DNA of 64,000 bases from a bacterium (GTDB lineage: Bacteria > Patescibacteriota > Patescibacteriia > SG8-24): positions 46 to 64,045 of the forward strand of contig JAHFIV010000001.1 in NCBI GenBank assembly GCA_023246225.1, given 5' to 3'. A program made the translations under genes and the position numbers. A model generated the notes under the pieces. The model was not told the DNA's origin and searched no databases. It saw nothing but the letters and a program-made list of their open reading frames with translations. Within the stretch, counting starts at the first letter, position 1, and each line of letters begins with the position of its first letter. Of the stretch, positions 17,661-48,625 are shown in pieces.

Positions 17661-17748
17661 GGAGGGGTGGCCGAGAGGTTTAAGGCAACAGTCTTGAAAA
17701 CTGTCGTTCTGAAAGGAACCGTGAGTTCGAATCTCACCCCCTCCGCCA
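17661..17748 (+). tRNA. tRNA-Ser(TGA): tRNA-Ser (anticodon TGA)
   Basis: Manually folded cloverleaf: acceptor stem GGAGGGG/CCCCTCC, anticodon loop CTTGAAA, long variable arm, T-loop GTTCGAATC, discriminator G, encoded CCA. 88 nt. Confidence 0.85.
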
Positions 17749-24216: not shown

Positions 24217-24221
24217 AGAAT

Positions 24222-31712: not shown

Positions 31713-31713
31713 A

Positions 31714-32418
31714 TTATACCGTGGTGATTTCTTCGGTCACCCGAATTTTGGACTGATCGACCATTTTTTCATTGTCGTACAAATCAGGGTTGTACACGCG
31801 ATAGTACAGCTCGATAAGACTTTGCGTATCGAGTTGCACCGCCTTGAGACCCATGCTCCCGAGCGACCCCTGGATGTGGTCGACGCGCGTCTGAAGATCG
31901 TTCTTACGCTGACGAAATCGTGACTCCGCGAGTCGTACAGACAAGGCTGGAGTAAACGCTTCTGACAAGCGAGAAAAAAATCCTTTTGCTTTGTCGGAGA
32001 GTGGGTTGTATGGCACCACCACAAAAAATTGTTTCTGCATGATCTGTCCGAGGGTCACCAGTTCTTGCACGAAACTTCGGTAGTCCGCGATCTGAAATCG
32101 TAACAATTCGTTCGTTTGATTTTTTTGAGATTCCTTTAAGCGCTCGAGATACGTATCGATATTCAATTTTCGTGATTGGATGACGATCTGCAGTGGAAAT
32201 TCGAGTGCATTTAAAAAACCGATGTACGCAGAAATAATCGCGTTCTGCTCATCCTCTGATTTGAGTGCGAAGTTGATGCTCGCAACGAGAAGCACTGCGC
32301 GCATCGTGCCATCTTTCATAATGACGACATCTTCTTTGATTTCGTTGATATCCAAATACCGCTGGGTCGCCGGACCCGGCTTTGCTCCTGCGAGTTTTTT
32401 GGATTGCATTTCTGGCAT
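31714..32418 (-). CDS. VirB4 N-terminal domain encoded as a separate ORF (split VirB4)
   Basis: VLLVASINFALKSEDEQNAIISAYIGFLNALEFPLQIVIQSRKLNID resembles the N-terminal domain of Gram-positive VirB4 (PrgJ/TcpF-like). Its stop TAA is followed after 1 nt by the ATG of the VirB4 ATPase ORF. Confidence 0.55.
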   Translation of the reverse strand: MPEMQSKKLAGAKPGPATQRYLDINEIKEDVVIMKDGTMRAVLLVASINFALKSEDEQNAIISAYIGFLNALEFPLQIVIQSRKLNIDTYLERLKESQKNQTNELLRFQIADYRSFVQELVTLGQIMQKQFFVVVPYNPLSDKAKGFFSRLSEAFTPALSVRLAESRFRQRKNDLQTRVDHIQGSLGSMGLKAVQLDTQSLIELYYRVYNPDLYDNEKMVDQSKIRVTEEITTV

Positions 32419-32496
32419 ACGTTTGAACTATGGATCCCGGATCGGCCGTCGCCGCGCGACGCCCGCCCGGGATGACGCGCGCAAAGGAAATGCGCG

Positions 32497-32928
32497 TCAA
32501 TCAGCGTCAGGGTTGTACACACCACCAGTGTTCACCACAAGAGAAAGTTCGGTGAGTTTCGTTGCGGCGAGCGGTTCTTTTCTAATACGCACCACTGGCG
32601 GAGCCGGCGGTGGCGCTTTGATGATCTCACGCAACTCACTGTCGGTGTACTCTTTGTCCCACAATCGAAGGCTCGGGCGGCGCACGGTCTGCACCAGATT
32701 CAAACAAAAAAAATGAAACGGCTGACCGTTCACGCGCAAAAAAGCAAAAATTCCACCAATCATAATGGTTGGAATACCTGTTGCGAGAAACGCAGTGAAA
32801 TCGAAAAGTTTATATTCAATGAACATGACAAACGACGTGGCGAGCATCAAAAGAAACTGTCGAACGGTGAGTGGTCCGAGGATTTTATCCTCCACATCGA
32901 TGAACTGCGGGACAGTGAACTTGTTCAT
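32497..32928 (-). CDS. PrgI/VirB3-like small membrane protein
   Basis: The N-terminus FIDVEDKILGPLTVRQFLLML plus 2 TM segments is typical of PrgI-family proteins that precede VirB4 in Gram-positive-type T4SS. Confidence 0.55.
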   Translation of the reverse strand: MNKFTVPQFIDVEDKILGPLTVRQFLLMLATSFVMFIEYKLFDFTAFLATGIPTIMIGGIFAFLRVNGQPFHFFCLNLVQTVRRPSLRLWDKEYTDSELREIIKAPPPAPPVVRIRKEPLAATKLTELSLVVNTGGVYNPDAD

Positions 32929-32964
32929 ACGCTACATGTAGCATACCACAATCTACACCTCTTT

Positions 32965-33888
32965 TCATCCGAAGCGCACCGTGCGATTAAGCTCCATTAT
33001 CGCTGCGAATTCGTCCTTATTCAGCGCCGGTTCACGCTTTTTTTCGAGCTCGGCGATAACATCGAGAATCGGCTTACCTTCGAGACCACCACGAAGCATG
33101 GAGAGGTAGAGTTTGTTCACCTCGCTGTCCTGCCACGCTTTTATCCCCTGCGTTTTTATTTCGAAACCAAGATCATCGAGCAAATCGATCTTATCTTTAA
33201 TCTTGAGCGTGGCTTCGCGAGGATCTTTAGAGAGTCTACGAAAATCTTTGAGCGTGAGTGCGCGGAGTTCTTCGACTGGACCGGTTAGTCGCGGAGTAAA
33301 TTTTACGTCGGAGATCGTTTGCGCTGGTGGTGTTACTGTTGGCGCGGCTGCCGGTGTCGCGCGGGGCACGGGCGCGCTTGCTACTGGTTTCGGCGCAACA
33401 GGTTGCGGTTCATTTTTTGCGATCGGAGCAACAGGTAAATTCGGTGGTGCTGGTGCTTTTTCTTGCGGGGCAGCGGGTGACGTTACTGCGATAACGCGCG
33501 GTTCTGCAGGCGGCGTTTCTGATAGCGATTTTTGTGGCGTGGTTTGTGCAGCGCCACTTACTTTCGTCACCAATTTTGCAAACGCGCTATCGTTCGCTGC
33601 TTTTTCTTTTTGTTGCTGCTCGTCGGCTTCGTTCATCATCTTCGCTGTACGCACTGCGACATACTCCGCTTTTTCATTTGCGACACGACGCACATCTTTT
33701 GCGTGATACGCCGCATTTTTTTCTTTAAAAACCACCATCGCTTTCTCGGCGTCTGCGTCACTCACCCCCATTCCCCCACTTGCGATCGGCATAGTAAGTT
33801 TCGACGTCGTTTCCAGGACGTCACGGAGATCGCGAAAATACATCGACACAAGCATACGAAAGCGACGCCGCTCATCATCATCTTTCAC
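32965..33888 (-). CDS. hypothetical protein with long Pro/Ala-rich linker (T4SS-like cluster)
   Basis: A 307-aa ORF. The annotated start is GTG, overlapping the upstream stop by 1 nt; an alternative ATG lies 11 codons downstream. Confidence 0.5.
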   Translation of the reverse strand: MKDDDERRRFRMLVSMYFRDLRDVLETTSKLTMPIASGGMGVSDADAEKAMVVFKEKNAAYHAKDVRRVANEKAEYVAVRTAKMMNEADEQQQKEKAANDSAFAKLVTKVSGAAQTTPQKSLSETPPAEPRVIAVTSPAAPQEKAPAPPNLPVAPIAKNEPQPVAPKPVASAPVPRATPAAAPTVTPPAQTISDVKFTPRLTGPVEELRALTLKDFRRLSKDPREATLKIKDKIDLLDDLGFEIKTQGIKAWQDSEVNKLYLSMLRGGLEGKPILDVIAELEKKREPALNKDEFAAIMELNRTVRFG

Positions 33889-35126
33889 TACGATTCCAGA
33901 TGCGGCGATCGCTTCGTCTGCGGCGGTATCGTATGGGGTTGCTGATGGGACGATTTTTTTTCTGGATTCCGGCTCGGGGGCAGGAATGACAGAAGATAGA
34001 GGGGTAGGGGTGATTGAAGAAGTGGATGGCGGAATGACAACGGTTTTGGTCCTGGTGCGGGGGCAGGAATAACAGATGGAGGTGTTACGGGTTTTGGTGG
34101 TGGTACGGCTTTTTTTTCTGGATTCCGGCTCGGAGGCCGGAATGACATGTTCCGGGTCAAGCCTGGAATGACAAGAGAAGTGGTAGCCGGAATGACAGAA
34201 GTGACAGACGGAACGACAGGAGCAGGAGAGGCTGGGATGACAGAAGAAAGAGCAGGCAGAGTGACAGGAGATGGGGGCGTTGCTGGTTGCGGTGGTTTTG
34301 GTGGTGGTACAACCACTGGTTTTTTCACTTCTTCTTTTACGATTCTGGATTCCGGCTCGGAGGCCGGAATGACAATAGACGAAGGGGTTGGCGAGGCTGC
34401 GAGGCTTACTTTTCGCCCAAATCGGCCGGCGAGTTCCTTGGTTTTCTGCAGGAACCTCTCTTTTGTTTGGCGCTCTCGCTCTTCTCGCTCCTTTGCATTT
34501 TTTATCGCTTCCTCTTTGAGCGCAGGTAACTTTGGAGCGGCTTCGTGCAGTAACGCGATAACCGCAGCGCTCTGTTCGGGAGAAAATTCAGACCCCCCGG
34601 TTTTCACCGGCTTCTCAAGCATCTCCTTCGTTGCATTTTCATCATGAATACCTTTCAACTGTGCGGTCACGATCGTCTCAAACCGACGACGCAGCACGTG
34701 ATCACTCGGCGCGTATCCGCTTTTCTCCACAATCCCCCGTGCCATCACCTCGATCGGATCGACCGCGGGAGGTAGCGGCGGAAGAAATTCATCAGCGTGC
34801 AGATCTTTGTAAATCTTTTGCTGCTCTTCAAGAAGCTCTGTAGCATCAGCGAGCACATCAGCGAACGCATCACCTTGCACATCGAGCGCTTTTTCAAAAG
34901 GTATCCCTGCGTTGTCCTCAAGCCAGCTCGCAAGATCATCATCAGAAATTTTTCCGAGCGCAATCATGCGCACACCGCTCAAAAATTCGTTTGTCTGTAC
35001 GGGAGTGAGCTCGTGTCGCACCGCGATCTCGTCAAATTTTTTCTGTCGCTCAGACGCAGCGAAAAAGGTCTCCAGCTCCGGGAGTACCCACTCGTCCTCC
35101 TTGAACGTGAAGACCGGTTCGGTCAT
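33888..35126 (-). CDS. hypothetical acidic protein whose C-terminal ~140 aa are encoded by palindromic repeat cluster R2
   Basis: Continuous ORF. Residues after about 245 read VIPASEPES / SFRPPSRNPEKK, the translation of GTCATTCCGGCCTCCGAGCCGGAATCC-type repeats. Confidence 0.5.
   Translation of the reverse strand: MTEPVFTFKEDEWVLPELETFFAASERQKKFDEIAVRHELTPVQTNEFLSGVRMIALGKISDDDLASWLEDNAGIPFEKALDVQGDAFADVLADATELLEEQQKIYKDLHADEFLPPLPPAVDPIEVMARGIVEKSGYAPSDHVLRRRFETIVTAQLKGIHDENATKEMLEKPVKTGGSEFSPEQSAAVIALLHEAAPKLPALKEEAIKNAKEREERERQTKERFLQKTKELAGRFGRKVSLAASPTPSSIVIPASEPESRIVKEEVKKPVVVPPPKPPQPATPPSPVTLPALSSVIPASPAPVVPSVTSVIPATTSLVIPGLTRNMSFRPPSRNPEKKAVPPPKPVTPPSVIPAPAPGPKPLSFRHPLLQSPLPLYLLSFLPPSRNPEKKSSHQQPHTIPPQTKRSPHLES
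33958..34376. repeat. MITE-like palindromic repeat cluster R2, located inside a reading frame
   Basis: At least four TTCTGGATTCCGGCTCGGAGGCCGGAATGACA-type units within the 33888..35126 ORF. Confidence 0.8.
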
Positions 35127-35141
35127 AAAATACTACGGACC

Positions 35142-37787
35142 TCATTCTATCGAGTTTTTTATTTCAGCAATTTGTGCTGCCAGCTCTCCAATCTGCTTTT
35201 CCATTGTAGCATCCAGCGCGCTCGAATTCTTCATCGCGGTAATTTTTCTGAGATTATTTTTTAATACTTTGAGTTTTGCTATGGCTTGCTCTGAAAGCGT
35301 GCCGGAAGGACCACTTTCAAGAGTATCGATCGCTGTTAATGTTTTGTTGGCACCCTTACGAGCTGCTGCAAACTTTTCATCGGGCGATAGCGGCGCCATC
35401 GATCTTCCAAATTCATTTTCAGCATTACCAAAGCTGGTCCTTCCGCGTTCGATTGCTTTATTCATCGCATTACGTTCCGCTGGTGAGAGATTGCCTCGCT
35501 GAATAGCTTGTGCTAAACCCTCCGCTGCAGAAGCAAGACGATTCGCTGCGGCGATAGGACTCGTTGCAGACTGTACCGCAGCTAGCTCTTCGGCGATCTT
35601 GCCGGTTCCATCTCCACCCATGTCCGCATATTGTTTTGCAAGATCTGCCGCTTGTTTTTTAACGGTATCAAGATCAACGCCGGCACTAGCGCCACCAGAA
35701 TCTTCCTCATGCGCACGTGCTAATTGCTCCGTGTCCGCAAGAAGTTTTGTGGCGTTGGGATCTTTTGCCAACATTTTTTCATTGCGTTCTTGATCGACCG
35801 TTGCCCGCTCAATAGGGTTGGTCGCCACTCTATTTAACTCATCAATCTTCTTCTCGTTCTCAACACCTCCTGCCTCTTCAAGCATCTTAAGAATTTTTTG
35901 TTGATCCTTATCTGAATATTTCTCAAATTGATTCGCGTCAATATTTTTCAGGTATGTACTCTGAAATTCTCCTTTCCTTTCAAGCGCGGCGAGTTGTTTT
36001 TCTGGTCCAGCCCTCCGGAACCAACTTGCCGCCTTGTCGGCATTTTCAAATGCCGCGTCCTGATTTCCGCCCGCAGCGAGCGCTTTGTCAAATTGCTTCA
36101 CCGTATCTTTATCTTTTTCAGTATAGGCAAGAATTGGCTTGCCCTCCTCATCCTTTTTTACATTTCCGTTTTCATCTTTCACCTCAACCCGAACAATACC
36201 CATAACGTCTTTGAGAAGTTTTGCCTTGCCTTCTGGCCCAAGATTTTTCATTGAATCCGCACCTCGTTCAGCGTTCACAAGCATCGCTGCTTGGCGGTCA
36301 ACTTTTGAAGCTTTCTCGTCGCGTATGGTCTTCTCGTTCTCTTGCGTACTCTTGGTGTTTTCCTTCGCCTTTTCGGCAGCCAACCTATCAACCGCAGCCC
36401 GACGCTTTGCAGGGTCCGAAATATTAGCAATGTCACGCTTCTTTTCACGCGCTTCGGTAAATTTTTTGTCCATTCCTATAAATCTTCCAAACCCGGATTC
36501 CGTGAGCTTTTGTTTGTAGCCACGACCCATCGAAGCGAGACTTTGACGTTCGCCTGTCACTGGATCTTTTGCGCTAAGTATTCCCGCATTCGCTGCAGCA
36601 CCGCCCGCGAACTTCCCGAGACTCACTGCTCCTCTTTTGAGTTTCTGTGCGACTTTCTGTGCCATGCCTCCGCTTTCCGCGGCCATTTGCGATGACATTT
36701 TATATCCTGCCGCGAGCAAGACGATCATCACAATGAAACTTTTCACTTGATTGAAATCGCCAAATTGCGTGACGCCTGCGCTGAATGTTTCTGCCGCGCT
36801 TTGCGATGAGGTGAACCCGCTATCTAACTGATTTCCTGAAGCGACAAGGAGCGCGAGCCAAAGCACAAACGCCATGATCGGACCGAAGACGACTTGCCCG
36901 GTAAATTTTTTCCACCACTCTGCGTAGTATCCTGACGCAGCTTTTGTCGGCACCGCGCGAAGAAAAAACGCGAGTGGTGAGAGCACGATCAGCAGCCACA
37001 GAGTGACGATGCGTGCGATCAGTGAAAGCGACAGGACGATCAAAATTCCGCACGATACCGCAAGCGCGATCACTGCGAGTACGGAGGATATAACGATGCC
37101 GAGTGAAAACTTGAGGGGGTCAGATTCACCTATCGCTTTAAGCGTATCTTTGAGTGCAGATGCTGACGGCGAAAGAAGTTGAGTAAGATGCAAACCGTTC
37201 GCAAAGTTTCCACCTGCCGCTTCTTTGAAACCGTAGACGAACGTGAGCATCACCACCTGACCGAAGTCGATCAGCACTCCGCAGATCGTTCTCGTGAAGT
37301 TCACGAGCACCGCCATGATCAGCAGGCTCGAAAGGTTTTTATTTTTATAGCTGTACTGATCGACGCCGAGCATCGTGCCGAATGCGATGAGTAGCAGCAC
37401 CAAAATAAAAAACATGTTGGTGACATCGCGCACGATCGTCCAACCGTTCGTGACCACGGCTGCGTTCACGAAGTCGTTATACTGCGCAACGCTCACGAGA
37501 ATGCTCACGAGTCCGAGCATTAGTTGCCCAAGTACCATCACGATCACTTGGAGGATGTTCGCTATCAGGAGGAGGACGAAGCTGCCCATGAAGTTTCCTC
37601 CTGCAGCTGCTGCTCCGGACTTTACAGCGGCGTAGCCCGCCGCAGCAACAACAACCGGACCAAGAGCCTGTACCGGCCGTGCAGCAATAAACAAGAAAAC
37701 AAAAGAAAAACACGCGCACACGACATGCCGTCTGTTATCGCTTATCCAGCGAAAAAATTTTGCGGACTTTTCCCTCAAAAAAGGCAT
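35142..37787 (-). CDS. VirB6/TrbL-like polytopic membrane protein with ~500-aa charged coiled-coil C-terminal extension
   Basis: N-terminal signal. At least 7 TM segments in the first ~380 aa. Lies between the giant surface protein and the VirB3/VirB4 genes. No certain sequence signature. Confidence 0.5.
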   Translation of the reverse strand: MPFLREKSAKFFRWISDNRRHVVCACFSFVFLFIAARPVQALGPVVVAAAGYAAVKSGAAAAGGNFMGSFVLLLIANILQVIVMVLGQLMLGLVSILVSVAQYNDFVNAAVVTNGWTIVRDVTNMFFILVLLLIAFGTMLGVDQYSYKNKNLSSLLIMAVLVNFTRTICGVLIDFGQVVMLTFVYGFKEAAGGNFANGLHLTQLLSPSASALKDTLKAIGESDPLKFSLGIVISSVLAVIALAVSCGILIVLSLSLIARIVTLWLLIVLSPLAFFLRAVPTKAASGYYAEWWKKFTGQVVFGPIMAFVLWLALLVASGNQLDSGFTSSQSAAETFSAGVTQFGDFNQVKSFIVMIVLLAAGYKMSSQMAAESGGMAQKVAQKLKRGAVSLGKFAGGAAANAGILSAKDPVTGERQSLASMGRGYKQKLTESGFGRFIGMDKKFTEAREKKRDIANISDPAKRRAAVDRLAAEKAKENTKSTQENEKTIRDEKASKVDRQAAMLVNAERGADSMKNLGPEGKAKLLKDVMGIVRVEVKDENGNVKKDEEGKPILAYTEKDKDTVKQFDKALAAGGNQDAAFENADKAASWFRRAGPEKQLAALERKGEFQSTYLKNIDANQFEKYSDKDQQKILKMLEEAGGVENEKKIDELNRVATNPIERATVDQERNEKMLAKDPNATKLLADTEQLARAHEEDSGGASAGVDLDTVKKQAADLAKQYADMGGDGTGKIAEELAAVQSATSPIAAANRLASAAEGLAQAIQRGNLSPAERNAMNKAIERGRTSFGNAENEFGRSMAPLSPDEKFAAARKGANKTLTAIDTLESGPSGTLSEQAIAKLKVLKNNLRKITAMKNSSALDATMEKQIGELAAQIAEIKNSIE

Positions 37788-37868: not shown

Positions 37869-38087
37869 TGTCATTCCGGCCTCCGAGCCGGAATCCAGAA
37901 AAATTAAAAAGACCAAACGGAAATCGTTTGGCTTTACGGTTCTGGATTCCGGGTCACGGCCCGGAATGACAATAAAGGAGGCCGGAATGAAAGAGGGGTG
38001 GCTGGGTTCCACTCAACAAAAAGACCAAACGATTTCCGTTTGGTCTTTTTTACGTTTCTGGATTCCGGGTCAAGCCCGGAATGACAA
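37869..38087. repeat. MITE-like palindromic repeat cluster R3 (two adjacent elements) between the giant gene and the VirB6-like gene
   Basis: Starts TGTCATTCCGGCC and ends CCCGGAATGACAA. Contains two AAAAAGACCAAACG-N5-CGTTTGG-T-run bidirectional terminator-like hairpins. Confidence 0.8.
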
Positions 38088-38099: not shown

Positions 38100-41000
38100 C
38101 TATGGCAGTGGGGGGTACACCTCGATCGTTCCTGCGAAACTTGTCCAGGGGTTAGTCTTGTCGGGCGGAATCTGCACGCATTCATCCGCAGCACCGGTGT
38201 TGTTCATGCAAAGATTACCGAGGCCTCCGTTTCCAGGACATGTTCCGTTACACGTCTGCCAGTTATCCATAATCTGCACGCGTGGTTTAAACACACAGGC
38301 GGTGTGTGCATTGTTCACGCAATCGGTAACGATACCTTTGCTCTTGTCGCACTCCTGTTTATCAGCGATGAGTTTGGCAAGTTTTTCCTTACTGCACGTA
38401 TACGTATGCGTCTCCTCAAAAAACTCGCTCTGGCACTGTTTTCCACCACCCCATCCGAGCGCAGGATCATCACAAATCTTCTTACTGCTCCCCCCACCAA
38501 GGTTGATGCTGCCACGGCGGTTCTTGTACCAACCGGTCAACTCAAGAATTTCCAAATTATCACCCCAATCAACGATCTTATGCCGAATTGGCATGTGATC
38601 TCTATCGGCATACGCGTAGTACGTGAGCGTTGCTTTTAACTTACCGCTGTGCGACGCAACCGGCACCGCAGCCATAATTTTATTCACCGTGAGACCCGCT
38701 GGTCCTTCCTGACAATTCCTACTCCCGAAACAGAAACTGTAATCAACGGCAACTACCTTCGGTGCGTTGTGTTCCGTCGCATATCTCTCACGGAAATCCC
38801 AACCGCCGTCACCACCAAGCGCGCGCGCCGTCACGTCAACTTTTGCCAGATCGCCGTTTGCCAAACGGTACGCATCGTAGGACCAACGCGGCTCGTAATC
38901 GGCGCCGCGAGGAACAGTGACGGAAGGATCGGAGGGATTATTCCATAAAGGAGACCCTTGTCGCCACTCATACACATTAAACGCAGCGGCAAAGTACTGA
39001 CTGAGGTGCAACGCGCCGAGTGCGCGCGCGCCGAAACCTGCATTCCTCCACCCTGCATCTGGCGCACCCTTCCCTTTATCGCTGCCGCAATCACCGATGC
39101 ACGCGTATGGCGTCCCTGAAGCTGTAGATCCCGCGTTGAATATGAACTGCCTCTCATTCGGCTTATCTTTTTTCGGTCGAACGTCCACATGCGTGAACAC
39201 ACTGCCTCCCTCCGAGTCGTACACCGGCAAAATTCGGTTCCACACCTTGTTGATCTTCTCATCATCAGGAGCAGCAGGATTGAGACTAAACAAAATGCGA
39301 CCATTCTTTGGATCTGGTGAAAAATCTTCGATCGGTTGGGCGATCGCGCCGTAGGGAATCATTGGAAGCTGGGTCACTCCCACTGCGTTGTGTTGTTGTA
39401 TGTCCGTACCTGCGTTAGAGAATCGATCAGACTTATGATCTTTTTGATACGGCGGCGCGTCAAGATACGCATTCGCGAGCCGATCGGTCCATGCATAATT
39501 TTTAAAATCACTATCGAGCCCACGCGAAACATCGTTCACAAACGCGATCTCTTGGCACCAATCGCGAAGTTCGACATACACCGTTGCGAGGGTATTGGGG
39601 CAATAATCCTTGCTCCCGATAGCCTCTATGGCCTTGAGGAGAGCAGCGCCGATACAAGCCGTGGGATTAAAAAATGGATTAGGAGCAAGAGGAGTGGGCG
39701 GGGTACAGACGCCACCTACGAACGCCTCTGAAAGCTGGGCGCAATGTACTTCATTATTACAACTCACCGTCGCAAACCCTGCGAGCTTACGGTCAACAAA
39801 GTGCGCCCTAATACCGAGCACTGCAAGGTTCATGCAACCACCATCTGCCAACGGCTCGTCGATATCTGTTGTATGAGAATCATTCACCCCCAGCCCCGCA
39901 AATGGACAACTCGTTGAGGCAATAATTTCATGGTTACCTTTGATACTCTCGTCAAAATATTGACCGTTGTCTGGCCCTGGTTCACCTGAAGATTTATTTG
40001 GATAACGGATACAAATGGTCCACTGATTCTTTTCCGTAAGATAGAAATCGAATTTTCTTCCTGAGGCAACCGTACTCTTAAAGTATCCGGCATTTCCAAA
40101 AACATGGATACCGGCGATCTCATCCTCAAACAGATCTCTCTGCGGAAATTTATAAAGATTAGGCTTTGGAGGTGGCGTCGTGTGTACTGGGTACGGTATC
40201 CACTTCGCGTTTACCTTTCCATCATCCAAACCAAGAAGATCCCCAATACCAATTTTACACCCCACAGCTGCATAACATTCATTACTCCACCACCCCCAAC
40301 CGGGCAACCGAGGCACATCGGCCGGTATCGAACCGATCTGATCTTCAATTTTCATTGAATAACTAAGTATCCCAGGTGTACCAACGCGAGTACCTTGCGC
40401 AACCTGGCAATACAAAAGGTTGCCGGAGTTGACATACCCTGCCTCTTCGTTTTGGTTACCGAGGTCGCTCCCTCCGGAGAGCTGATCTTGAGGGAGCCAC
40501 AAGTTGCACGTATGCCGATCGGGGTTTGCGTTCACAAACCGACCAAAATCAGGATCGAGACAGAACCCGTACCAGCCCTTCGCTGTCACGTCTTTTGTCC
40601 AGCGCGAACACACGCCACCCTCGCTACTTACACATGGATCTGTTGCAGCATCCGTTGGCACTGGCCTTGCGCTCGGCACGCAAGTTTTCCCATCATTCGG
40701 TCCACCAACGCATACTCCTTTGTCCTCACCATGAATCCCCGGTGCAAGACGCGGATCGTGCAGCGAAACGTAGCGGACGGTAGTGCCGTTCACGCCATAC
40801 CCAAGCTTGCGATATGAACAATCACACGCATTTTCTTTGGTGCAGATGTTTGCGTTACCAAATCCCGACTTAATTTCCTTCGGAAGGCCGGTGTCATTAT
40901 CATACTTCACCACCACGCTCGGCGGGAAAGGCGCGTCATCTTCAGGATACCCTCGGCAAGAGGGTGCGTTAATGAAGTCGCTACGAAGCGGTCCGCCTTT

Positions 41001-44000
41001 CATGTCATACATGCACAGATTCGCGATGCATTTTCCTTGTGCCTGCGATCCTGCCGGACAATCGTACGTCCCACTGCACCCAAGACTGAGTTTACAATCC
41101 GCATCACTGCGACACTGCCGATTGTTGGTACTGAGCATCGCACCGACGCGCTGCGTTGCCGAGATCGACGCGTTGCAAATACCATCCGAACCGCACTGCG
41201 CGCTCGTATCACACGGCTTGAGTTGTGCGCTGTCGAGCGACGACTCACAGAATCCCACGAATTTTTTTCCACAGCGGAACCCCCACGAGAGCGGATCGCT
41301 CCCTGGCGGGTTGCACGTGCCGTCCGACCAGCACAGTGTATCGTTGAGCGTCCCTGTTTTCTTGTCCGCACATCGTCCCATGCGGAAATCGACCGGAAGC
41401 GCATACTGCGCCGGATACTGGCCGGGAATAGTAAACCCTGAATACTCCACTCCCTTGTAAGTGATGTCGCGCTGCGCATACAGATCCGCGGTGACGCGTT
41501 TTACATTCTCTACTTTTTCAGGACGCTCCACCCAATTACTGCATTCCTGCGACTCACCGAACGTGCGCTGTTCATCGCATGCATCAAATCCGGAACACCT
41601 ATACTTGTATCGTCCGGTTGCCTCATCAGAAACCGCGTCCGTGGATCTACACGTGAGCCACTCTGCACATTCGCGATCCGCACCCACTTTAATAACGATG
41701 TTCGCGTCATTTTTTGTGACGTCGCGCCCCGCGGGACTCACACCCTTCTCTGACAGATCACATTTTTCTTCTTTTCTCTTGTCACAATCGGTGTCCGCCC
41801 CGCATGCAGTCGTGTGCCCACCGTCCACGGAGAAGCACCGACCTTCACAGAACGGACTTCGCGGATCGAGATTGCAGTTGAGCGGGTTCACCTTGCCACC
41901 GTTCACTGTTTTTTCGCTAAGGAAATACGTCGCAGCAGACGCGAACAACCTTGAGGGGTCGCTAGTTTTAGTAAACAACACACACCCTTCTTTGAGCGAA
42001 GCGGAGCCCCCGCACGACGTGAGGTCCAACTTGTTGTTCATGATGTAGTAGTACGGCTTTCCTTTTGGATGCACCTTCGATGTCGCGGCGGGATCAATAA
42101 ATTCTTCGCAACGATCGTACTGCGGATCGCACTGCCCCACCCAACCTTGATACCCACACGTGGTATTGCCGCGCGCAACTCTGCATACTTGCGTCGTGAT
42201 CGGCGGATTCGTGCATCCGCACGTGGACGTCGACGCGTCCCATCCGATCGTGGTCGGTCCGCACGTCAAACCGTCCGGCAGCTGGCAGAGCGCGTCGGCA
42301 TTTTTATACAAATTGTAGAATTCACCGTTCTGCAACAACTCTGGATAGCACGGAATATCTTTTCCTGCAGCGCTCGCCCGGAACCAACCGTAGCTCGCAG
42401 TGCCGCTAATGTTTACTCCTTCTTTATATTGGCACGTGCGATCGAACGGCTCTTTGAAATAATACTTTCCGTCGATCGCAGTGAACTCTTCGCAAGAAAT
42501 CGCCGGTTGCGTACACAAAGTTTGCCCGTACTGCGCGGGATCATCTTTGAGCGCTTTGACGTTCCAATTTCCTGGCACGCCGTTTTCAAACGAGAGCGTG
42601 CAGGTGCTCAGTCCTTTTGCGACCGTACAGTTTGCGTTAAATATCGGTCCGCATGTGCATCCCGACGCATCGTCGCACTTGCCCGCAACGATCCCCGCTC
42701 CGACGTTCGGGAGCGTGCACTCGCGTTCGTAAGTGATCTGCGGATTCGCGACGCTCTTGCAACCGATCGCTGTCGCCGCGCAAAGATTCTCACTGCGCGC
42801 AACGAGGAACCGACGATCGTCCGCAGAAACGTTTACGCGATCAGGATGCGAAGATTGCGGAGTGTTGTCGTCCCATCCATCGAGTTTGAACTGGCATGCG
42901 TTCTCTCCGATCGCGACGCGGCAGATATCCGCGATATCCGGAACGTTATCGGTGTACCAAGGATGGCGCACGTTGTAGTCGCACTTACAGTTCGACGCTT
43001 CATCTGCGACAACCGCGCAATCTTTCGCGCCTTTCGCGACAATACAAGAATTGATGCCATCGTTACATGCGCACGACGCTCCCAAACATGTGGCACCTCC
43101 CGCGAGCGTGCATTTTCCACATGTACGCGGCTCCGGCGTTGCTCGTTTATCAACGAGCTGACACACCGCGTTATACGATTCCTCGTACGGTGTCTGCACG
43201 TTGTTTTGTGTGAACGAGTACGCCTGACAACCGACCGCTTTGTCGCGACACAACTGTGCGAACGATCGCAGATATGCTTTTTTATTTGCACTGTTCGTGT
43301 ACTCCTTACACCCCAACATCTCTTGTGGCGACGGCACGCCAGCGAGCGTTTGGTCGCACGCTGCGGGCGTGTTCCACGAATCGCGAACGACGTACAAATT
43401 TTCTGGAACTTCTTTTACGATAACGTTATCGATGTACGCTTCGCCAACACCGGATTTGGCGAACACGAGGCTCGTCGGCGCAGTGCCCCACAGAGGATCG
43501 ACCGCGCTCACCGGACCGAGTGAATACTGTTTCCAGTCCGCTCCGAGCGTAAGCGTCGGCGCAGACGTTGTGGTGTCGGCATCACTAAAATGCAGACTGA
43601 GCGGCTTATCTGGCGCTGTCGTCCCTTTCTTTGCAACAACACAATCGGATTTCATTTTTTCGACAAGACACACGAGCCCTGTAGGCGAGACGCATCCGCA
43701 ACCCGCGTCCTGATCGCACACCGTTTTGTTTGTACACGTGACATCTTCTGCGCCATCTTCAAAGCCGATGTCGAGCGTGCCGCTTCCCCGCGCCCAGAAC
43801 GTGAGTGTATAGCTGCGACCCGCAGCGACCGTACCGCCAACTTCTTTTGTCGCGGTCACGGATCCTGGAGCGAACTTCAACGAGTGTCCGCCGACAATCA
43901 CGGATTCTGATGACTGCTTCACATCCTTGCTCATCCACGCATCGACACCAGCCTCAAACGTGTCGCGCACAATACTCCGCACGTTGCTCGACGCGTTTCC

Positions 44001-47000
44001 TTTATATGGTCGGCAACCGTTGTACGCCTTACCGCAGTTCTGACTCGCTGTGACGTCTGCGTTGTAAATACACTGGCCCTTATCAGCGATCCACTGACCG
44101 TTTGATTTTTTACAATCATTTTCAGTTGCGGTGGTGATGCGATACTGGTGACATTCCGCGGTGAGGACGATCGTCTTTGATAATTTGCGGAAGTGGCGGT
44201 TGCCGTCGGCGTCATAAAATTCTCGGCAATCCAGATCACCACTATCGATATCTGCGCGACTGCACAAACCGTCGGTGGAACCGGCAGGAAGATCAGTGCT
44301 CACACTCGCGCAGTTGAGAGCGTTATCATCAAGCCGCGTACACGGTGCAACACCGGCGTTCTTGCACGTAGCCGGATCTGCGCACTCATCTGCAGCCTTT
44401 CCTTCTCCGATCTCTGTCATACTACACGCGCCGCACACGCCTGCAGCGCAGCACGTCTCTTCGTGCGCGACCGTGGTGTCACCACCCGCCGCGTCAGTCA
44501 CCTTCTTAAAGTTCCATACTTTCAACTGATATCCTGCAGTGTCTGAACCTTCCCAGCTATAGAACACTGTTTTCGGATCGGTCGACGGCTTTTGACACAA
44601 ACGAAGTTTCGAAAAGTACGCGACTTTTTCGTTCTCAACGTTGGTGAATTCAGAACAACCCGACTCCGCTTGCGTACACTGCTTCGCGGTCGTCGGAATA
44701 AAATACACAGGGAATTTTTCTGTATCAAATTCCGTTGCTTCTTGCTTGAAAATGTCATATCCCGCGCACTGCGCCGGACACGCGTCTTGCGGACCGGTCA
44801 CTGCAGGAAGTGAAGGATCGCCGTTCGTTGGTGTGAACCGATCACACCCGACTTCTTGCTCGCGACACACGCCTGCGAACGATGCACACTCTGGGCGGTC
44901 GGTCTCGTCACCTGTGCAACCAAGAAACGCGGGAGGAATTTTCGCGTCCACCATAGTGTTTGCCGAACCATACCCCTCGTGGAACGGCGTCAAACTCCCC
45001 TGCTCGAACTGCACTTCATCAACGTAGTCACCACCGCCGATCTCAAGCAAACCGTGCACCACTTTCTTTGGCAGCTTCGTGTCATCAACAACGAGCGTGC
45101 ATGACGCGCGGACTTCATCTGCGTTGCTCGTAAACGCGAAACGTAATACACCCGGCGCGTCAACTTTGCAGAAGTCGCTCGTCGGTGTTACCGGATTGCC
45201 GTTCTTATCTTGATACGCAGTGTTCGAAATAATCGCACCTGCCGGAAGCACGATCACGTTTCCGTTCAGATCGGTGAACGTCATTTGCATCGTCCCACTC
45301 GCTGAAGAAGCGCCGCTAAGGAACGTCGCTGAGAGGGTGTATGTGGTGTTTCCTTTTACCGGGACGCTGTCCTGGATGACGCGATCGGTGTACGCACATT
45401 CGGTCTGTCCTTTTATAACCTTACAAGTGTAATCGCCATCTTTGCAGGTGCACCCGGCATCGTTTGTACATACCGCAATCGTACAAGATTTTGGCGCGGA
45501 CCCCGTGAGACCCTGTATCTTCATCGCACTCGAGCCGCTCTTTATATTTGCCGCGGTCGTGGTTAAGACACCGCTGCTTGCAGATGCAGGAACCGCACCG
45601 AATGGCGCCCAATATTTCGCATGGTCAGGCGTGCCGTCACCATCGCCGTCCTCCAACTCTTCAAATCCCCCGTTTCGCACGAGGTTCAAAGATTGTCCGG
45701 TCGCGAGCGGAACGAGCGCAGAGCATCCGTTGTCTGTCGCCGAACACGTTTGCGCATTCTTATTAAAGTATCGCTGCGGCTGCACACGCCAATCATCGGC
45801 GACGTTCTGATCATCTCCCATCGTTGATGCGCAAGAATCCTGCCCCTTTGCAACGCGACACGTGCTGAGGTAGCAGCTACACCCGCCAGCGCTCGCGCAT
45901 TTCGCTTCGAGCGTGCACACGCTGCCATCATCGACTTTGCAAAGCGTTTTTCCGTTCGCGACGACGCAGCCGTCATTCCCTGACGCGTTGCCGGCGAGAC
46001 AACCTTTTTCAAGCGGACAAGTGTCGACGCACACGCTCCCGGGACAATCTGCATCCTTCGTACACTGCGTGCCGGCGTTCGCGCCTGCTTTGCAGAAATT
46101 TTTCTTCTGCGCAGAGATGGCGTTGGTTTGCAGCGAATACGCAAGACAACCGACGTTGTCAGCGTTACACACATCGACATCGATCGTGTTGACCAAGAAA
46201 TTTTCTGTGCCGCCCGTGCGAGTTTTGAGCGTTCGACAACTACTATAGTAGGCAGGACACTGCTCACCCTGGAATCGCCACACATTCCGCTCTTTCTGAC
46301 AGTACCCCCATCCACCGACGCACTTCCCGAAATCGTCCTGACGTAAACACGTCGGCGAATCAACACACACCTCTGCACGCGAGGACGTTTCGCTTGTCAC
46401 AAGCGTCGGTCCAAACGCTGTCGCGCGGCATTGCGTTGGTGGAACTTTGAGAACCCAGTCAGGATCGATCAGATGACACCACGGATGAGCCGAGTCGATC
46501 GTGCCGTTCGCGTTGCAATCATTAAAATGCGCGACAACCTCGCCGAGTGTCACTGGCGTCGCACCGACTTTGCTCGCGGCGATCTCCCAGCCGATCGAAA
46601 TGATACGCGCGGCACGAAGCTGTTTGAGGTTGCTCTCACAGTACGCGTACGTGTAGCAAAACGGATCGGTGTCGCGCTGTTTCTCTGTGGCAGGGAACAT
46701 CCGCCAATCGCTATGAAGCATCCCTCGCTTCAGCGCTTCTCTCACAGAGAGCGGTGTCGCATCGCCGATGCGAACAATGTCAGCAAACTGCTGGTCCATG
46801 ACGCAGTTGTTCGGGGCAGGATTCGACGGCGGGCAGGTCGTAAAATTGGTAAGCGGATCGTACTCCCCCGCTTCGTGCGTGGTAAGTGGGACGATTCTTG
46901 ACTGCTGAATCACCGCGGAGGCTGTTGCGCCCGGTTGTTGCACGATCCCTTCTGGACTAAGAATGATGTCGGGTTGTACAGAAAGCAGTTCTCCTGTGGA

Positions 47001-47942
47001 GAGCAGACCGCTCACCAGTTTATTCCACAATCGTGCGGTAAGTGTCGAGACAAACGTATTTGTCGCAGTAAGAACGACGGACTTCACCGCTCCTTTTGCG
47101 ATACTACCGGTCGTCGCCATTCTCGTACCGTCGAGTTGAGAGGCTTCACCATTTTTTGAACGACGGAATTCTTCTTGCGTCACTGCGCCTGGAGATTTTA
47201 TGCGACCAGAAACAGGATCTTTAATCGGAGAGAATCCTCCGCTCGACGCATTGGCGAGTCTCTCAACAACGCTGTCTCGCTGCGCGTTGCTGATAATATC
47301 TTGCTTGATGCCGAGCGCGGCGATGGAGACGCTGAGCGGACTCTGTCCCAATGAAAATTGGGGTTTTAATTTATTCAAAATCTCTCCTGTTGAAAATGAG
47401 GTAGCTATCGAATCCCAATTTTTAATCAGCTGATCGAAATTACACTTTGGCGGACTAGGAACGATCTCTTTCATGAAGCTGAGCTGCAACGCCAGCCCCG
47501 AAAGTCCTGGATCGCAAAGAAAATTGTTGCCGAACAACCCTTGCGAAAGGGAACCGACACTTTCACCGATCGCCCCTTGCCATGCTTGTCGGAAACCGTC
47601 CTTAAATCCCTTACTGTCCCAACACGCCACCTGACCAGGACAATCAGAGGTCAACGCTTTTGCTGCTTGATACGCGAGTTGCTGCGTAAAATAATTTGTA
47701 CCGTTAACGACCGCGATCACCGCTGACTCAACCAAAAGATGTTCGATCTTGTCGCTAGCAGCATTACCTGCAACTAAAGAAGTTAGCGGCGCATCCGCAA
47801 CAGGAAGCACGGCGAGCGCCGGCTTCGGCACAGTGAGCGTCGTTATCGTCACAACGCCCGCAACAAACATCGCGAGAAGCGCGCTGAGTTTCAGCGTTCT
47901 CTTTGTTGTGTGCGATTTTTCCGATCGCGGTTGTGGTTTCAT
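38100..47942 (-). CDS. giant (3280 aa) secreted/anchored Cys-rich surface protein with CBM-like modules
   Basis: Uninterrupted 9.8-kb ORF with N-terminal signal/anchor. Repeated Cys module C-x-C-x(4-7)-C-x-VAKG-x(2-3)-C at least 6 times. NGGFE and RDTFEAG segments resemble CBM4/9-type starts. Its ATG overlaps the upstream stop. Confidence 0.85.
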   Translation of the reverse strand: MKPQPRSEKSHTTKRTLKLSALLAMFVAGVVTITTLTVPKPALAVLPVADAPLTSLVAGNAASDKIEHLLVESAVIAVVNGTNYFTQQLAYQAAKALTSDCPGQVACWDSKGFKDGFRQAWQGAIGESVGSLSQGLFGNNFLCDPGLSGLALQLSFMKEIVPSPPKCNFDQLIKNWDSIATSFSTGEILNKLKPQFSLGQSPLSVSIAALGIKQDIISNAQRDSVVERLANASSGGFSPIKDPVSGRIKSPGAVTQEEFRRSKNGEASQLDGTRMATTGSIAKGAVKSVVLTATNTFVSTLTARLWNKLVSGLLSTGELLSVQPDIILSPEGIVQQPGATASAVIQQSRIVPLTTHEAGEYDPLTNFTTCPPSNPAPNNCVMDQQFADIVRIGDATPLSVREALKRGMLHSDWRMFPATEKQRDTDPFCYTYAYCESNLKQLRAARIISIGWEIAASKVGATPVTLGEVVAHFNDCNANGTIDSAHPWCHLIDPDWVLKVPPTQCRATAFGPTLVTSETSSRAEVCVDSPTCLRQDDFGKCVGGWGYCQKERNVWRFQGEQCPAYYSSCRTLKTRTGGTENFLVNTIDVDVCNADNVGCLAYSLQTNAISAQKKNFCKAGANAGTQCTKDADCPGSVCVDTCPLEKGCLAGNASGNDGCVVANGKTLCKVDDGSVCTLEAKCASAGGCSCYLSTCRVAKGQDSCASTMGDDQNVADDWRVQPQRYFNKNAQTCSATDNGCSALVPLATGQSLNLVRNGGFEELEDGDGDGTPDHAKYWAPFGAVPASASSGVLTTTAANIKSGSSAMKIQGLTGSAPKSCTIAVCTNDAGCTCKDGDYTCKVIKGQTECAYTDRVIQDSVPVKGNTTYTLSATFLSGASSASGTMQMTFTDLNGNVIVLPAGAIISNTAYQDKNGNPVTPTSDFCKVDAPGVLRFAFTSNADEVRASCTLVVDDTKLPKKVVHGLLEIGGGDYVDEVQFEQGSLTPFHEGYGSANTMVDAKIPPAFLGCTGDETDRPECASFAGVCREQEVGCDRFTPTNGDPSLPAVTGPQDACPAQCAGYDIFKQEATEFDTEKFPVYFIPTTAKQCTQAESGCSEFTNVENEKVAYFSKLRLCQKPSTDPKTVFYSWEGSDTAGYQLKVWNFKKVTDAAGGDTTVAHEETCCAAGVCGACSMTEIGEGKAADECADPATCKNAGVAPCTRLDDNALNCASVSTDLPAGSTDGLCSRADIDSGDLDCREFYDADGNRHFRKLSKTIVLTAECHQYRITTATENDCKKSNGQWIADKGQCIYNADVTASQNCGKAYNGCRPYKGNASSNVRSIVRDTFEAGVDAWMSKDVKQSSESVIVGGHSLKFAPGSVTATKEVGGTVAAGRSYTLTFWARGSGTLDIGFEDGAEDVTCTNKTVCDQDAGCGCVSPTGLVCLVEKMKSDCVVAKKGTTAPDKPLSLHFSDADTTTSAPTLTLGADWKQYSLGPVSAVDPLWGTAPTSLVFAKSGVGEAYIDNVIVKEVPENLYVVRDSWNTPAACDQTLAGVPSPQEMLGCKEYTNSANKKAYLRSFAQLCRDKAVGCQAYSFTQNNVQTPYEESYNAVCQLVDKRATPEPRTCGKCTLAGGATCLGASCACNDGINSCIVAKGAKDCAVVADEASNCKCDYNVRHPWYTDNVPDIADICRVAIGENACQFKLDGWDDNTPQSSHPDRVNVSADDRRFLVARSENLCAATAIGCKSVANPQITYERECTLPNVGAGIVAGKCDDASGCTCGPIFNANCTVAKGLSTCTLSFENGVPGNWNVKALKDDPAQYGQTLCTQPAISCEEFTAIDGKYYFKEPFDRTCQYKEGVNISGTASYGWFRASAAGKDIPCYPELLQNGEFYNLYKNADALCQLPDGLTCGPTTIGWDASTSTCGCTNPPITTQVCRVARGNTTCGYQGWVGQCDPQYDRCEEFIDPAATSKVHPKGKPYYYIMNNKLDLTSCGGSASLKEGCVLFTKTSDPSRLFASAATYFLSEKTVNGGKVNPLNCNLDPRSPFCEGRCFSVDGGHTTACGADTDCDKRKEEKCDLSEKGVSPAGRDVTKNDANIVIKVGADRECAEWLTCRSTDAVSDEATGRYKYRCSGFDACDEQRTFGESQECSNWVERPEKVENVKRVTADLYAQRDITYKGVEYSGFTIPGQYPAQYALPVDFRMGRCADKKTGTLNDTLCWSDGTCNPPGSDPLSWGFRCGKKFVGFCESSLDSAQLKPCDTSAQCGSDGICNASISATQRVGAMLSTNNRQCRSDADCKLSLGCSGTYDCPAGSQAQGKCIANLCMYDMKGGPLRSDFINAPSCRGYPEDDAPFPPSVVVKYDNDTGLPKEIKSGFGNANICTKENACDCSYRKLGYGVNGTTVRYVSLHDPRLAPGIHGEDKGVCVGGPNDGKTCVPSARPVPTDAATDPCVSSEGGVCSRWTKDVTAKGWYGFCLDPDFGRFVNANPDRHTCNLWLPQDQLSGGSDLGNQNEEAGYVNSGNLLYCQVAQGTRVGTPGILSYSMKIEDQIGSIPADVPRLPGWGWWSNECYAAVGCKIGIGDLLGLDDGKVNAKWIPYPVHTTPPPKPNLYKFPQRDLFEDEIAGIHVFGNAGYFKSTVASGRKFDFYLTEKNQWTICIRYPNKSSGEPGPDNGQYFDESIKGNHEIIASTSCPFAGLGVNDSHTTDIDEPLADGGCMNLAVLGIRAHFVDRKLAGFATVSCNNEVHCAQLSEAFVGGVCTPPTPLAPNPFFNPTACIGAALLKAIEAIGSKDYCPNTLATVYVELRDWCQEIAFVNDVSRGLDSDFKNYAWTDRLANAYLDAPPYQKDHKSDRFSNAGTDIQQHNAVGVTQLPMIPYGAIAQPIEDFSPDPKNGRILFSLNPAAPDDEKINKVWNRILPVYDSEGGSVFTHVDVRPKKDKPNERQFIFNAGSTASGTPYACIGDCGSDKGKGAPDAGWRNAGFGARALGALHLSQYFAAAFNVYEWRQGSPLWNNPSDPSVTVPRGADYEPRWSYDAYRLANGDLAKVDVTARALGGDGGWDFRERYATEHNAPKVVAVDYSFCFGSRNCQEGPAGLTVNKIMAAVPVASHSGKLKATLTYYAYADRDHMPIRHKIVDWGDNLEILELTGWYKNRRGSINLGGGSSKKICDDPALGWGGGKQCQSEFFEETHTYTCSKEKLAKLIADKQECDKSKGIVTDCVNNAHTACVFKPRVQIMDNWQTCNGTCPGNGGLGNLCMNNTGAADECVQIPPDKTNPWTSFAGTIEVYPPLP

Positions 47943-48625
47943 TATTTTGTCGGCGACGGCGCGGGTGGCGCAGTCGACATTGATGCAGCGATCTCTACAA
48001 GAGTGTCTTCAACTAACTTTCGCAGCGTCGCATCATCAGCCTTTGCAAGCGCATCTTCAGGAATTCCCAACTCGGTAATAAATGATCGCAATTCTACCGA
48101 ACTCATCGCGTCGAGTTTTGTGGTGATTTTTTCTTTTGTGAGCAGTGTCGGGTCACCGAAGGTTGTGATGATCGCCTGCATCGATCGTTCTTGTGCAGTT
48201 GCTGTTGGCGCGGGTGCAGGCGGTTGTTCTGTCGCCGGTGCAGCGTTCGTACTTGCTGTGCCACTCACCACAACTTGTCGACATATTTTTCCTTTCGGAC
48301 AATTCGGATCGGCGCCGGCGGCAACCTCTGTGCCATCGTTCGTACCATCAGAGTCTGAGTCCGCAAGAAAAGGGCTGGTGTGAAAAACGTACAGCTCGTC
48401 GTAATCAGAGAGCCCGTCTTTATCAGTATCTTCTGTCTTCAGTCGATCCATCTGCTCTTGCTCCAACTCATCTGAGCTTTTGTACGTAATCGGCTTGCGA
48501 ACAAAAGGAACCCAGATCGATCTCTTGATTTGCGCATACGCTAAAACCGCTGTCGTGATGCCGATGAGCAAGAAAACGACGAGCGCGATTTTTTCATGCG
48601 ATTTCGATGGAGATGTTTGAGTCAC
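47942..48625 (-). CDS. membrane-anchored protein with thrombospondin-type-3-like Ca-binding repeats
   Basis: TM anchor KIALVVFLLIGITTAVLAYA. DTDKDGLSDYDE and DSDSDGTNDGTE match the DxDxDGxxDxxE motif. Start taken as GTG at 48625; the ORF is open to 48745 but that would overlap rsmA. Confidence 0.5.
   Translation of the reverse strand: MTQTSPSKSHEKIALVVFLLIGITTAVLAYAQIKRSIWVPFVRKPITYKSSDELEQEQMDRLKTEDTDKDGLSDYDELYVFHTSPFLADSDSDGTNDGTEVAAGADPNCPKGKICRQVVVSGTASTNAAPATEQPPAPAPTATAQERSMQAIITTFGDPTLLTKEKITTKLDAMSSVELRSFITELGIPEDALAKADDATLRKLVEDTLVEIAASMSTAPPAPSPTK

Follow-up and report, generated by a model that had tools for sequence, protein, structure and literature searches.

The DNA considered here, referred to below as the window, is a stretch of 64,000 nucleotides from a member of the Patescibacteriota (lineage SG8-24; GenBank assembly GCA_023246225.1, contig JAHFIV010000001.1, positions 46 to 64,045). 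Its minus strand carries, in the order of reading, the genes for KsgA, a small membrane protein with TSP3 repeats (the TSP3 partner), a very large cysteine-rich protein (the giant), an 881-residue protein with several transmembrane segments (the 7-TM protein), two proline-rich proteins, PrgI, a TraC-like protein, VirB4, a 206-residue protein and a ComF-like protein. The coordinates of these genes, and of the features recognized within the giant, are collected in Table 1. The subject of this report is the giant, its TSP3 partner and their possible relation to the T4SS (type IV secretion system) genes that follow them.

A giant gene of the Patescibacteria and its TSP3 partner

The initial annotation of the window, made from the nucleotide sequence and a list of its open reading frames (ORFs), had described the giant as one 9.8-kb ORF of 3,280 codons. 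That description was fully supported: translation of the window gives an ORF that begins with ATG and contains no internal stop over its 3,280 codons. Cysteine residues were said in the same annotation to number in the hundreds, which is an overstatement, as the count is 172 (5.2 % of residues). The plus strand opposite the gene contains many long antisense ORFs, the longest of them 484 aa (42069-43523), and these show no sign of being genes.

Relatives of the giant were sought with a word-indexed search, which returned 80 proteins of 2,100 to 3,900 aa, with identities of 25 to 85 %. Where their sources are named, these are metagenome-assembled genomes (MAGs) of Patescibacteria, Parcubacteria or Uhrbacteria, and the annotation is 'hypothetical' in all cases. 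A scan of one genome per species showed that relatives are encoded in at least 577 genomes. The record titles of those genomes name Uhrbacteria, Falkowbacteria, Magasanikbacteria, Parcubacteria and 'Patescibacteria group', together with a few titles that evidently belong to mislabelled MAGs. Cluster members of 3,280 and 3,272 aa, near-identical to the giant, are present on other ENA contigs, and a relative of 3,268 aa, at 85 % identity, is collinear with it from end to end. The ORF is a genuine, ancient and Patescibacteria-specific gene. In an alignment of 27 sequences, dozens of cysteine positions are invariant down to 25 % identity; the cysteines of the giant therefore constitute a conserved framework.

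The N-terminus had been annotated as a signal or anchor, and of these alternatives the first was retained. A transmembrane scan of the giant found its sole hydrophobic segment at aa 15-40. This is followed by A42-L-A44↓V, with small residues at the -3 and -1 positions, and in the 27 aligned relatives Ala44 is invariant within a consensus of P-x-P-A-x-A↓Q. The N-terminus reads as a cleavable Sec signal peptide of the signal peptidase I (SPase I) type, and not as an anchor. Given that pattern, the mature giant would possess no membrane anchor of its own. The C-terminus (…VYPPLP) is without a sortase motif.

The TSP3 partner consists of two TSP3 repeats of the Ca-binding type, a DPNCPxGKxC motif, a proline-rich linker, a helical tail and one transmembrane segment. 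Both repeats were identified by TSP3_bac (PF18884), with a score of 26 bits where the cut-off is 25, and 40 homologues share the conserved motif DTDxDGLxDYDELYVYxTSPxLxDSDSDG. The start of the mechanically derived ORF (GTG 48745) is too far upstream, as it intrudes into the KsgA gene, which stops at 48700. The true start is probably GTG 48625, because it agrees with the alignment of homologues and is preceded, 12 nt upstream, by GAGG. As the initial annotation had noted, the stop codon of this gene overlaps the ATG of the giant (TAATG in the window). A TSP3 gene immediately precedes that of the giant in 64 of 64 loci, typically with an overlap of 4 nt or a gap of 0.

Table 1. Genes and features of the giant locus in the window. 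Residue numbers (aa) refer to the giant. Bit scores are given with the Pfam cut-off where relevant.
Feature	Coordinates	Strand	Remarks
TSP3 partner gene	47942..48625	(-)	Single-pass membrane protein, 227 aa, start GTG 48625
Giant gene	38100..47942	(-)	ATG start, 3,280 aa, 172 Cys
Signal peptide, aa 1-44	47811..47942	(-)	Basic (KR-rich) n-region, 20-residue h-region, A-L-A↓V cleavage motif
N-terminal region, aa 45-360	46863..47810	(-)	Modelled as long helices at low confidence, pLDDT 25-60; conserved motifs in family alignment
Most conserved core, aa 361-620	46083..46862	(-)	Numerous invariant Cys, plus YCESNLKKLRAARIIPIGWEIAA and HLIDPDWVLK
Degenerate seventh module, aa 640-668 (approx.)	45939..46025	(-)	
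Cys module 1, aa 676-706	45825..45917	(-)	
CBM4/16/22-like jelly roll 1, aa 745-1000	44943..45710	(-)	Module 2 inserted in loop
Cys module 2, aa 820-851	45390..45485	(-)	Inside CBM-like domain 1; modelled beta-hairpins, pLDDT 72-82
CBM4_9-like jelly roll 2, aa 1320-1520	43383..43985	(-)	Module 3 inserted; Pfam CBM_4_9
Cys module 3, aa 1403-1436	43635..43736	(-)	Inside jelly roll 2
Cys module 4, aa 1609-1644	43011..43118	(-)	
Cys module 5, aa 1740-1783	42594..42725	(-)	
Cys module 6, aa 1886-1931	42150..42287	(-)	
Hypervariable segment, aa 2521-2760	39663..40382	(-)	Identity drop relative to P0002
Putative Ig-like/E-set beta-sandwich, aa 3050-3280	38103..38795	(-)	WGDG…HTY…DNWG pattern; pLDDT 85-94
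Terminator-like hairpin	37912..37932	(-)	In 312-nt gap after giant; promoter-like site 37832-37803 follows
881-aa polytopic membrane protein (7-TM protein)	35142..37787	(-)	~7 transmembrane segments, long hydrophilic tail; VirB6/PrgH position
412-aa Pro-rich protein	33888..35126	(-)	
307-aa Pro-rich paralogue	32965..33888	(-)	
PrgI family protein (VirB3 equivalent)	32497..32928	(-)	Pfam PrgI 28.2 bits (cut-off 27)
TraC-like/TrsD-type protein (related to VirB4 N-terminus)	31714..32418	(-)	TraC_F_IV 22.8 bits, below cut-off 28.1
VirB4-type T4SS ATPase	29817..31712	(-)	P-loop_TraG 85.7 bits, AAA_10 42.9 bits
206-aa single-pass membrane protein	29196..29816	(-)	VirB8/PrgL position only
ComF-like protein	28483..29226	(-)	DZR_2 25.3 bits (cut-off 27), Pribosyltran 20.0 bits (cut-off 26.3), both below cut-offs

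Cysteine modules and domain architecture

A distinctive feature of the giant is a repeated six-cysteine module, with the consensus CTSAAGCPCTDDTGGSCTVAKGQTSCT plus one cysteine ahead of it, so that six cysteines fall within 30-45 residues. At least six copies had been claimed initially. Six were indeed found, with their C-x-C pairs at aa 688, 831, 1415, 1624, 1762 and 1908, in addition to a degenerate seventh. A regular expression for the module matched the giant six times, whereas 2,000 shuffles that preserved its composition averaged 0.001 matches (maximum 1).

The number of modules differs among members of the family, over a range of 0 to 8. The window protein has 6 copies and the relative P0005 has 8; members of the closer clade have 2-8 (one has none) and distant members 0-1. 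Most copies occupy orthologous sites, with extra sites at aa 490-520 of P0009 and aa 2840 of P0025. The jelly rolls of P0017 and P0020 are without the insertions that correspond to modules 2 and 3.

Searches of sequence libraries returned little that resembles the module outside this family. When the isolated modules were compared with Pfam at E≤10, nothing was obtained but a meaningless match to Cyclotide (E 0.22), and the PDB sequence search gave no match to the module. A 33-position module profile, run against 1.84 billion representative proteins, produced 27 matches at E≤1e-3, of which 25 were members or fragments of the giant family and two were unrelated. Small six-cysteine units with a C-x-C and a terminal, glycine-containing, disulfide-closed hairpin are also characteristic of EGF-like, laminin-EGF and TNFR modules. 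The spacing in the giant is different, however: C-x(4-13)-C-x(4-13)-C-x-C-x(4-9)-C-x8-C, in which the C-x-C pair is formed by cysteines 3-4 and not, as in EGF, by cysteines 4-5. No EGF or TNFR family matched either the whole giant (E≤0.1) or the six isolated modules (E≤10). The suggestion that the module is undescribed thus holds as far as the searched libraries go (Pfam, PDB and the profile search). It is a real and family-restricted unit, and one that is most likely dispensable for the core function of the family.

Two unrelated repeat proteins, P0090 (682 aa) and P0092 (611 aa), match no more than the terminal C-x-[IV]-x-x-G-x3-C half of the module, e.g. APSCTIAAGASTCNV, and this disulfide hairpin may represent a motif of wider occurrence than the complete module. 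A second repeat system is present in the giant itself, namely a C-x5-[GSR]-C-x2-[YF] hairpin, which occurs in ten copies (0.47 expected) and the cysteines of which are invariant throughout the family. This hairpin is the older of the two repeat systems, and the C-x-C…C-x-V-x-K-G-x3-C module is the younger.

Outside the modules, the architecture of the giant was approached by profile searches and by AlphaFold2 models of two 960-aa tiles. The mean predicted local distance difference test score (pLDDT) of these models was approximately 60, and their usable parts were aa 361-500, 751-985 and 3050-3280. Conservation across the family is highest at aa 361-620, and the pLDDT is 74-90 for aa 361-500. 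Pfam, PDB and fold searches with this core returned no match, and beyond the giants a profile of the core found two fragments only, one of which lies within a frameshifted copy of the same gene.

The initial annotation had also pointed to segments resembling CBM4/9 carbohydrate-binding modules. Two jelly rolls were found, which agrees with that suggestion, but the score for CBM_4_9 itself (PF02018, aa 1324-1390) is borderline, at 26.0 bits against a gathering score of 25.9. The same family has already been assigned to many relatives of the giant in precomputed annotation, and there is internal similarity between aa 730-849 and aa 1300-1434. Examination against the CBM_4_9/CBM16/CBM22 clan showed the beta-sandwich jelly-roll fold. 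The versions in the giant differ from CBM4, CBM16 and CBM22 modules in that a six-cysteine module is inserted in a loop and no glycoside hydrolase is attached.

At the C-terminal end, the model of aa 3050-3280 matched solely Ig-like/E-set sandwiches (3hc2, 5u5o, RhoGDI and CTLA-4), and these matches are weak (best E value 3.7e-3, low TM scores). Profile searches with aa 2981-3280 gave no Pfam match at E≤10, and no PKD or Ig-like profile recognized the segment. The whole giant, compared with Pfam, NCBIfam, PHROGs and PDB sequences, yielded only the borderline CBM_4_9 match and a sub-threshold GTA_spike_fiber match. No catalytic fold or family was detected, in a survey in which about 40 % of residues in the two tiles had a pLDDT below 50 and aa 1001-2320 lay outside the models.

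A comparison of the giant with P0002 revealed a marked local divergence. The two proteins are approximately 95 % identical along most of their length, and only 32-45 % identical over the 240 residues from aa 2521 to aa 2760. Across the family, too, conservation is lowest and gaps are most frequent in this zone. Such a pattern is the signature that would be expected of a specificity-determining surface. Given the 32-45 % identity, a diversity-generating retroelement is an unlikely source of the variation.

Neighbouring genes and the type IV secretion context

The genes downstream of the giant, which the initial annotation had passed over, were compared with components of known T4SSs. In addition to the matches listed in Table 1, the VirB4-type protein gave 20.9 bits with CagE_TrbE_VirB, just below the cut-off of 21, and orthologues of the TraC-like protein in related loci carry the TraC-like family PF26593. 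The two proline-rich proteins are paralogues, and a profile of either finds the same ORFs in other loci; no transmembrane segment and no Pfam family were found in them, and they have no known T4SS role. A profile of the 206-aa protein, run against the PDB, gave no VirB8 match.

A recent survey of T4SSs in the Patescibacteria (Quinonero-Coronel et al. 2025, PMC12102498) described systems composed of VirB4, TrsD, PrgI/VirB3 and VirB6, located near ksgA and, in the class ABY1, adjoined by comF. The window shares with these chromosomal systems VirB4, the TrsD/TraC-like protein, PrgI/VirB3 and the ksgA and comF neighbours, and no relaxase was seen in the cluster. This cluster represents the chromosomal, relaxase-less, MPF-FATA-like (mating-pair-formation type FATA) T4SS known from the Patescibacteria. 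From 28483 to 37787 one gene follows another without a break, which leaves no space for VirB2-like pilin genes. Within such a system, the giant and its TSP3 partner would count as extra, lineage-specific components. In a Saccharibacterium, the T4SS is essential for growth as an epibiont (Wang et al. 2023, PMC10633639); a giant cysteine-rich protein is mentioned neither in that paper nor in a later T4SS review.

It was of interest to see how widely this arrangement is kept. The neighbours in the window were profiled against 82 related loci, with counts restricted to loci having enough flanking sequence. KsgA was found upstream of the giant in 58 of 59 loci. Among the 36 loci with at least 9 kb of downstream flank, the 7-TM gene was present within 10 kb of the giant in 27; PrgI was found in 14 of these 36, the TraC-like gene in 13 and VirB4 in 11, the latter three counts being limited by flank length. 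The same gene order is kept in loci whose giants are 27-48 % identical to that of the window, and locus L084 (27 % identity) retains the whole of it. In L083, the most distant relative, the TSP3, giant and 7-TM genes remain together.

Several variations on the locus were observed in relatives. The protein P0080 (L083:10001-23108) carries a PA14 domain, and the 7-TM version in L083 is 1,264 aa long. An Uhrbacteria locus (L072:20915-26665) encodes a 1,917-aa Rhs/Tc-toxin-like protein (SpvB, TcdB_toxin_midN, RHS and FG-GAP repeats) approximately 2 kb downstream of the giant, ahead of the T4SS genes. In L024 (25677-27755) and L003 (20617-22335), the gene for a Peptidase_M23 protein immediately precedes the 7-TM gene; in L037 (25128-26396), where the 7-TM gene was not detected, it lies downstream of the giant. 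This protein is a candidate VirB1-like wall hydrolase; it is absent from the cluster in the window.

Elsewhere in the window, the G+C content falls to 0.37-0.47 between positions 6000 and 20000. A tyrosine integrase gene (16480-17595, plus strand) abuts a tRNA-Ser gene (17661-17748, plus strand) in this region, and genes for a Prim-Pol protein (13523-15820) and a trypsin-like protease (9564-11720) are nearby. The region has the appearance of a mobile element inserted at tRNA-Ser. At 23185-26489, a DsbD_2-type membrane protein with an HMA domain adjoins a heavy-metal P-type ATPase; a link of the DsbD_2-type protein to the thiol-disulfide chemistry of exported cysteines would be speculative.

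Interpretation and comparison with known systems

That the giant is an exported binding or recognition protein can be stated with good confidence. The initial annotation had called it a surface adhesin or partner-recognition factor, and the signal peptide, the jelly rolls, the putative Ig-like sandwich, the hypervariable segment and the failure to detect a catalytic fold are all consistent with that designation, although they do not prove it. The more extended proposal, in which the protein belongs to an exported and tethered recognition or adhesion complex serving the T4SS, stands at about an even balance of probability.

According to that proposal, the giant would be exported by the Sec pathway, with cleavage of its signal peptide, and oxidative folding outside the cell would turn it into an extended series of beta-rich domains that some 86 disulfides hold together, a number suggested by its 172 largely invariant cysteines. 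The single-pass, Ca-binding-type TSP3 protein, translationally coupled to it and presumably made in fixed proportion, probably tethers it to the membrane, as the 64/64 adjacency and the overlap of the two genes suggest. The giant, the TSP3 partner and the 7-TM protein would then form the extracellular, partner-contacting part of a relaxase-less T4SS, a role suggested by gene order and equivalent to that of the adhesins or mating-pair-stabilisation proteins of other T4SSs. Targets on the partner cell might be recognized by the two CBM-type jelly rolls, which could bind glycans, and by aa 2521-2760. The modules, as six-cysteine hairpin mini-domains inserted into loops, would most likely serve to rigidify or decorate exposed surfaces, and not the core function. 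The giant was also considered as an effector translocated by the T4SS, and this was rejected because it has a Sec signal peptide.

A number of observations weigh against the proposal that the complex serves the T4SS. The evidence that connects the giant to that system is gene order. Conservation of order says little about a common function here, since housekeeping genes (KsgA in 58 of 59 loci, Sua5, a major facilitator superfamily (MFS) protein, a release factor and GroEL) are equally syntenic. In Uhrbacteria, 2-10 kb of housekeeping genes (a Ser/Thr kinase and aminoacyl-tRNA synthetases) separate the giant from the T4SS genes; no 7-TM gene was found within 10 kb in 9 of the 36 loci; and in L083 there is no VirB4 within 10 kb, nor were PrgI and the TraC-like gene found there. 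The 7-TM protein gave no VirB6/TrbL match in Pfam for 14 members of its family, and no PDB match by profile. The gap that separates the giant from the 7-TM gene in the window contains a terminator-like hairpin, followed by a promoter-like site. The hairpin is the top-ranked terminator-like site in the interval of 28-48 kb, though the total number of such sites is not above that in shuffled sequences, and the giant-TSP3 pair may be transcribed apart from the T4SS genes. Both structural models are weak, and most of the giant is without a confident model.

Many of the same observations would be expected if the giant and the TSP3 protein constituted a stand-alone surface adhesin or recognition complex, the proximity of the T4SS genes reflecting inherited gene order in small, stable genomes. 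This is the chief rival reading, possible though not favoured. The synteny of the housekeeping neighbours, their insertion before the T4SS genes in Uhrbacteria, the lack of a VirB4 gene near the giant in L083 and the terminator-like and promoter-like sites are in accord with it, as is the fact that invariable adjacency (64/64) is seen for the TSP3 gene only. It accounts less well for the distance from the giant stop to the 7-TM start, which is only 0-14 nt in six loci, for the persistence of the full gene order down to 27 % identity, or for the retention of the 7-TM gene with the giant even where VirB4 is absent. Moreover, no adhesin was detected in the published survey of Patescibacteria T4SSs (PMC12102498), in which a giant or cysteine-rich protein goes unmentioned.

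A structural role in the envelope, as an S-layer-like protein or cell-wall scaffold that maintains the integrity of ultra-small cells and has no part in partner recognition, is unlikely. The core-genome position of the gene, its very wide conservation, the rigid, disulfide-rich architecture of its product and a partner of the Ca-binding type would suit such a role, and some S-layer systems involve Ca binding. However, a hypervariable segment between flanks of approximately 95 % identity points to a diversifying external interaction, domains of the CBM type are typical of binding proteins, and a single-copy protein of 3,280 aa would be an unusual lattice unit.

It is very improbable that the giant is a secreted toxin, effector or polysaccharide-degrading enzyme acting on a host. 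The CBM-like fold is found in Vip3 toxins and phage tail or baseplate proteins and as an attachment of glycoside hydrolases, and an Rhs/Tc-toxin gene lies near the giant in one relative, but no catalytic or toxin family emerged from the Pfam, NCBIfam, PHROGs, PDB sequence and fold searches (with aa 1001-2320 outside the models). An artefact of assembly or annotation, with repeats collapsed or genes fused, was rejected as having virtually no likelihood, given hundreds of independent assemblies with collinear full-length relatives of 2,800-3,700 aa, the near-identical 3,280- and 3,272-aa copies from other contigs, and modules that are diverged (24-46 % mutual identity in their alignment) and not identical collapsed repeats.

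If the complex does serve the T4SS, a more specific version of the proposal may be put forward tentatively for systems of the ABY1/Parcubacteria type. The giant, the TSP3 tether and the polytopic protein would constitute the 'missing adhesin' apparatus and would replace the VirB2-like pilin arrays of other classes, with the hypervariable segment setting host range; the ComF-like protein would hint at import of host DNA or nucleotides, and not at DNA export.

Cysteine-rich or very large surface proteins are associated with T4SSs in other bacteria. TraN of the F plasmid is a cysteine-rich mating-pair-stabilisation adhesin of an F-type T4SS, approximately 600 aa in length and located in the outer membrane, with a variable central region that recognizes the partner cell. 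Its likeness to the giant, as a Sec-exported, cysteine-rich surface protein encoded with a T4SS, is one of analogy only. PrgB, the aggregation substance of pCF10, is another large protein of the cell surface, which mediates cell-cell contact and has its gene alongside those of a monoderm T4SS of the PrgH-PrgI-PrgJ type. It is LPXTG-anchored and not cysteine-rich, whereas the giant has no sortase motif and no homology to it. No Pfam family of the TraN or PrgB type matched the giant at E≤0.1. CagY of Helicobacter pylori, a VirB10 homologue of a diderm, is a T4SS protein of very large size whose cysteine-containing repeat modules vary in number between strains. Repeats in CagY change by recombination within the species, whereas the module number of the giant differs between lineages, and no similarity to VirB10 was seen. 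PrgB profiles found nothing in the Patescibacteria (PMC12102498).

Closer in kind are the proteins of approximately 1,650 aa reported from Peregrinibacteria (Anantharaman et al. 2016, PMC4736985), which have signal peptides and about 7 % cysteine, vary between strains and were proposed to function in attachment. They are encoded in a 14-gene cluster and show weak similarity to cysteine-rich repeats of Myxococcus (PMC4736985). These proteins, compared here by description only, belong to another lineage, and neither a T4SS link nor the C-x-C…VAKG module was reported for them. The general kind, large exported cysteine-rich proteins from the CPR (Candidate Phyla Radiation) with a proposed part in attachment, has therefore been known since 2016. 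What is new is the delineation of a widespread family, the loop-inserted six-cysteine module, and the fixed pairing with a TSP3 protein at a position heading a T4SS cluster.

The Patescibacteria account for much of the diversity of bacteria, and other cells appear to be where they live. In the only species subjected to genetic tests, the T4SS proved essential (PMC10633639, PMC11665869). The six-cysteine module is compact, apparently family-restricted and tolerant of insertion into loops, properties that lend it some interest in protein engineering and in studies of protein evolution. Should the link to the T4SS prove wrong, few uncharacterised families of surface proteins in these bacteria would equal the giants in size and distribution. 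The giant is a concrete candidate for a host-contact element of the Patescibacteria, and may offer a marker with which host specificity could be read from metagenomes.

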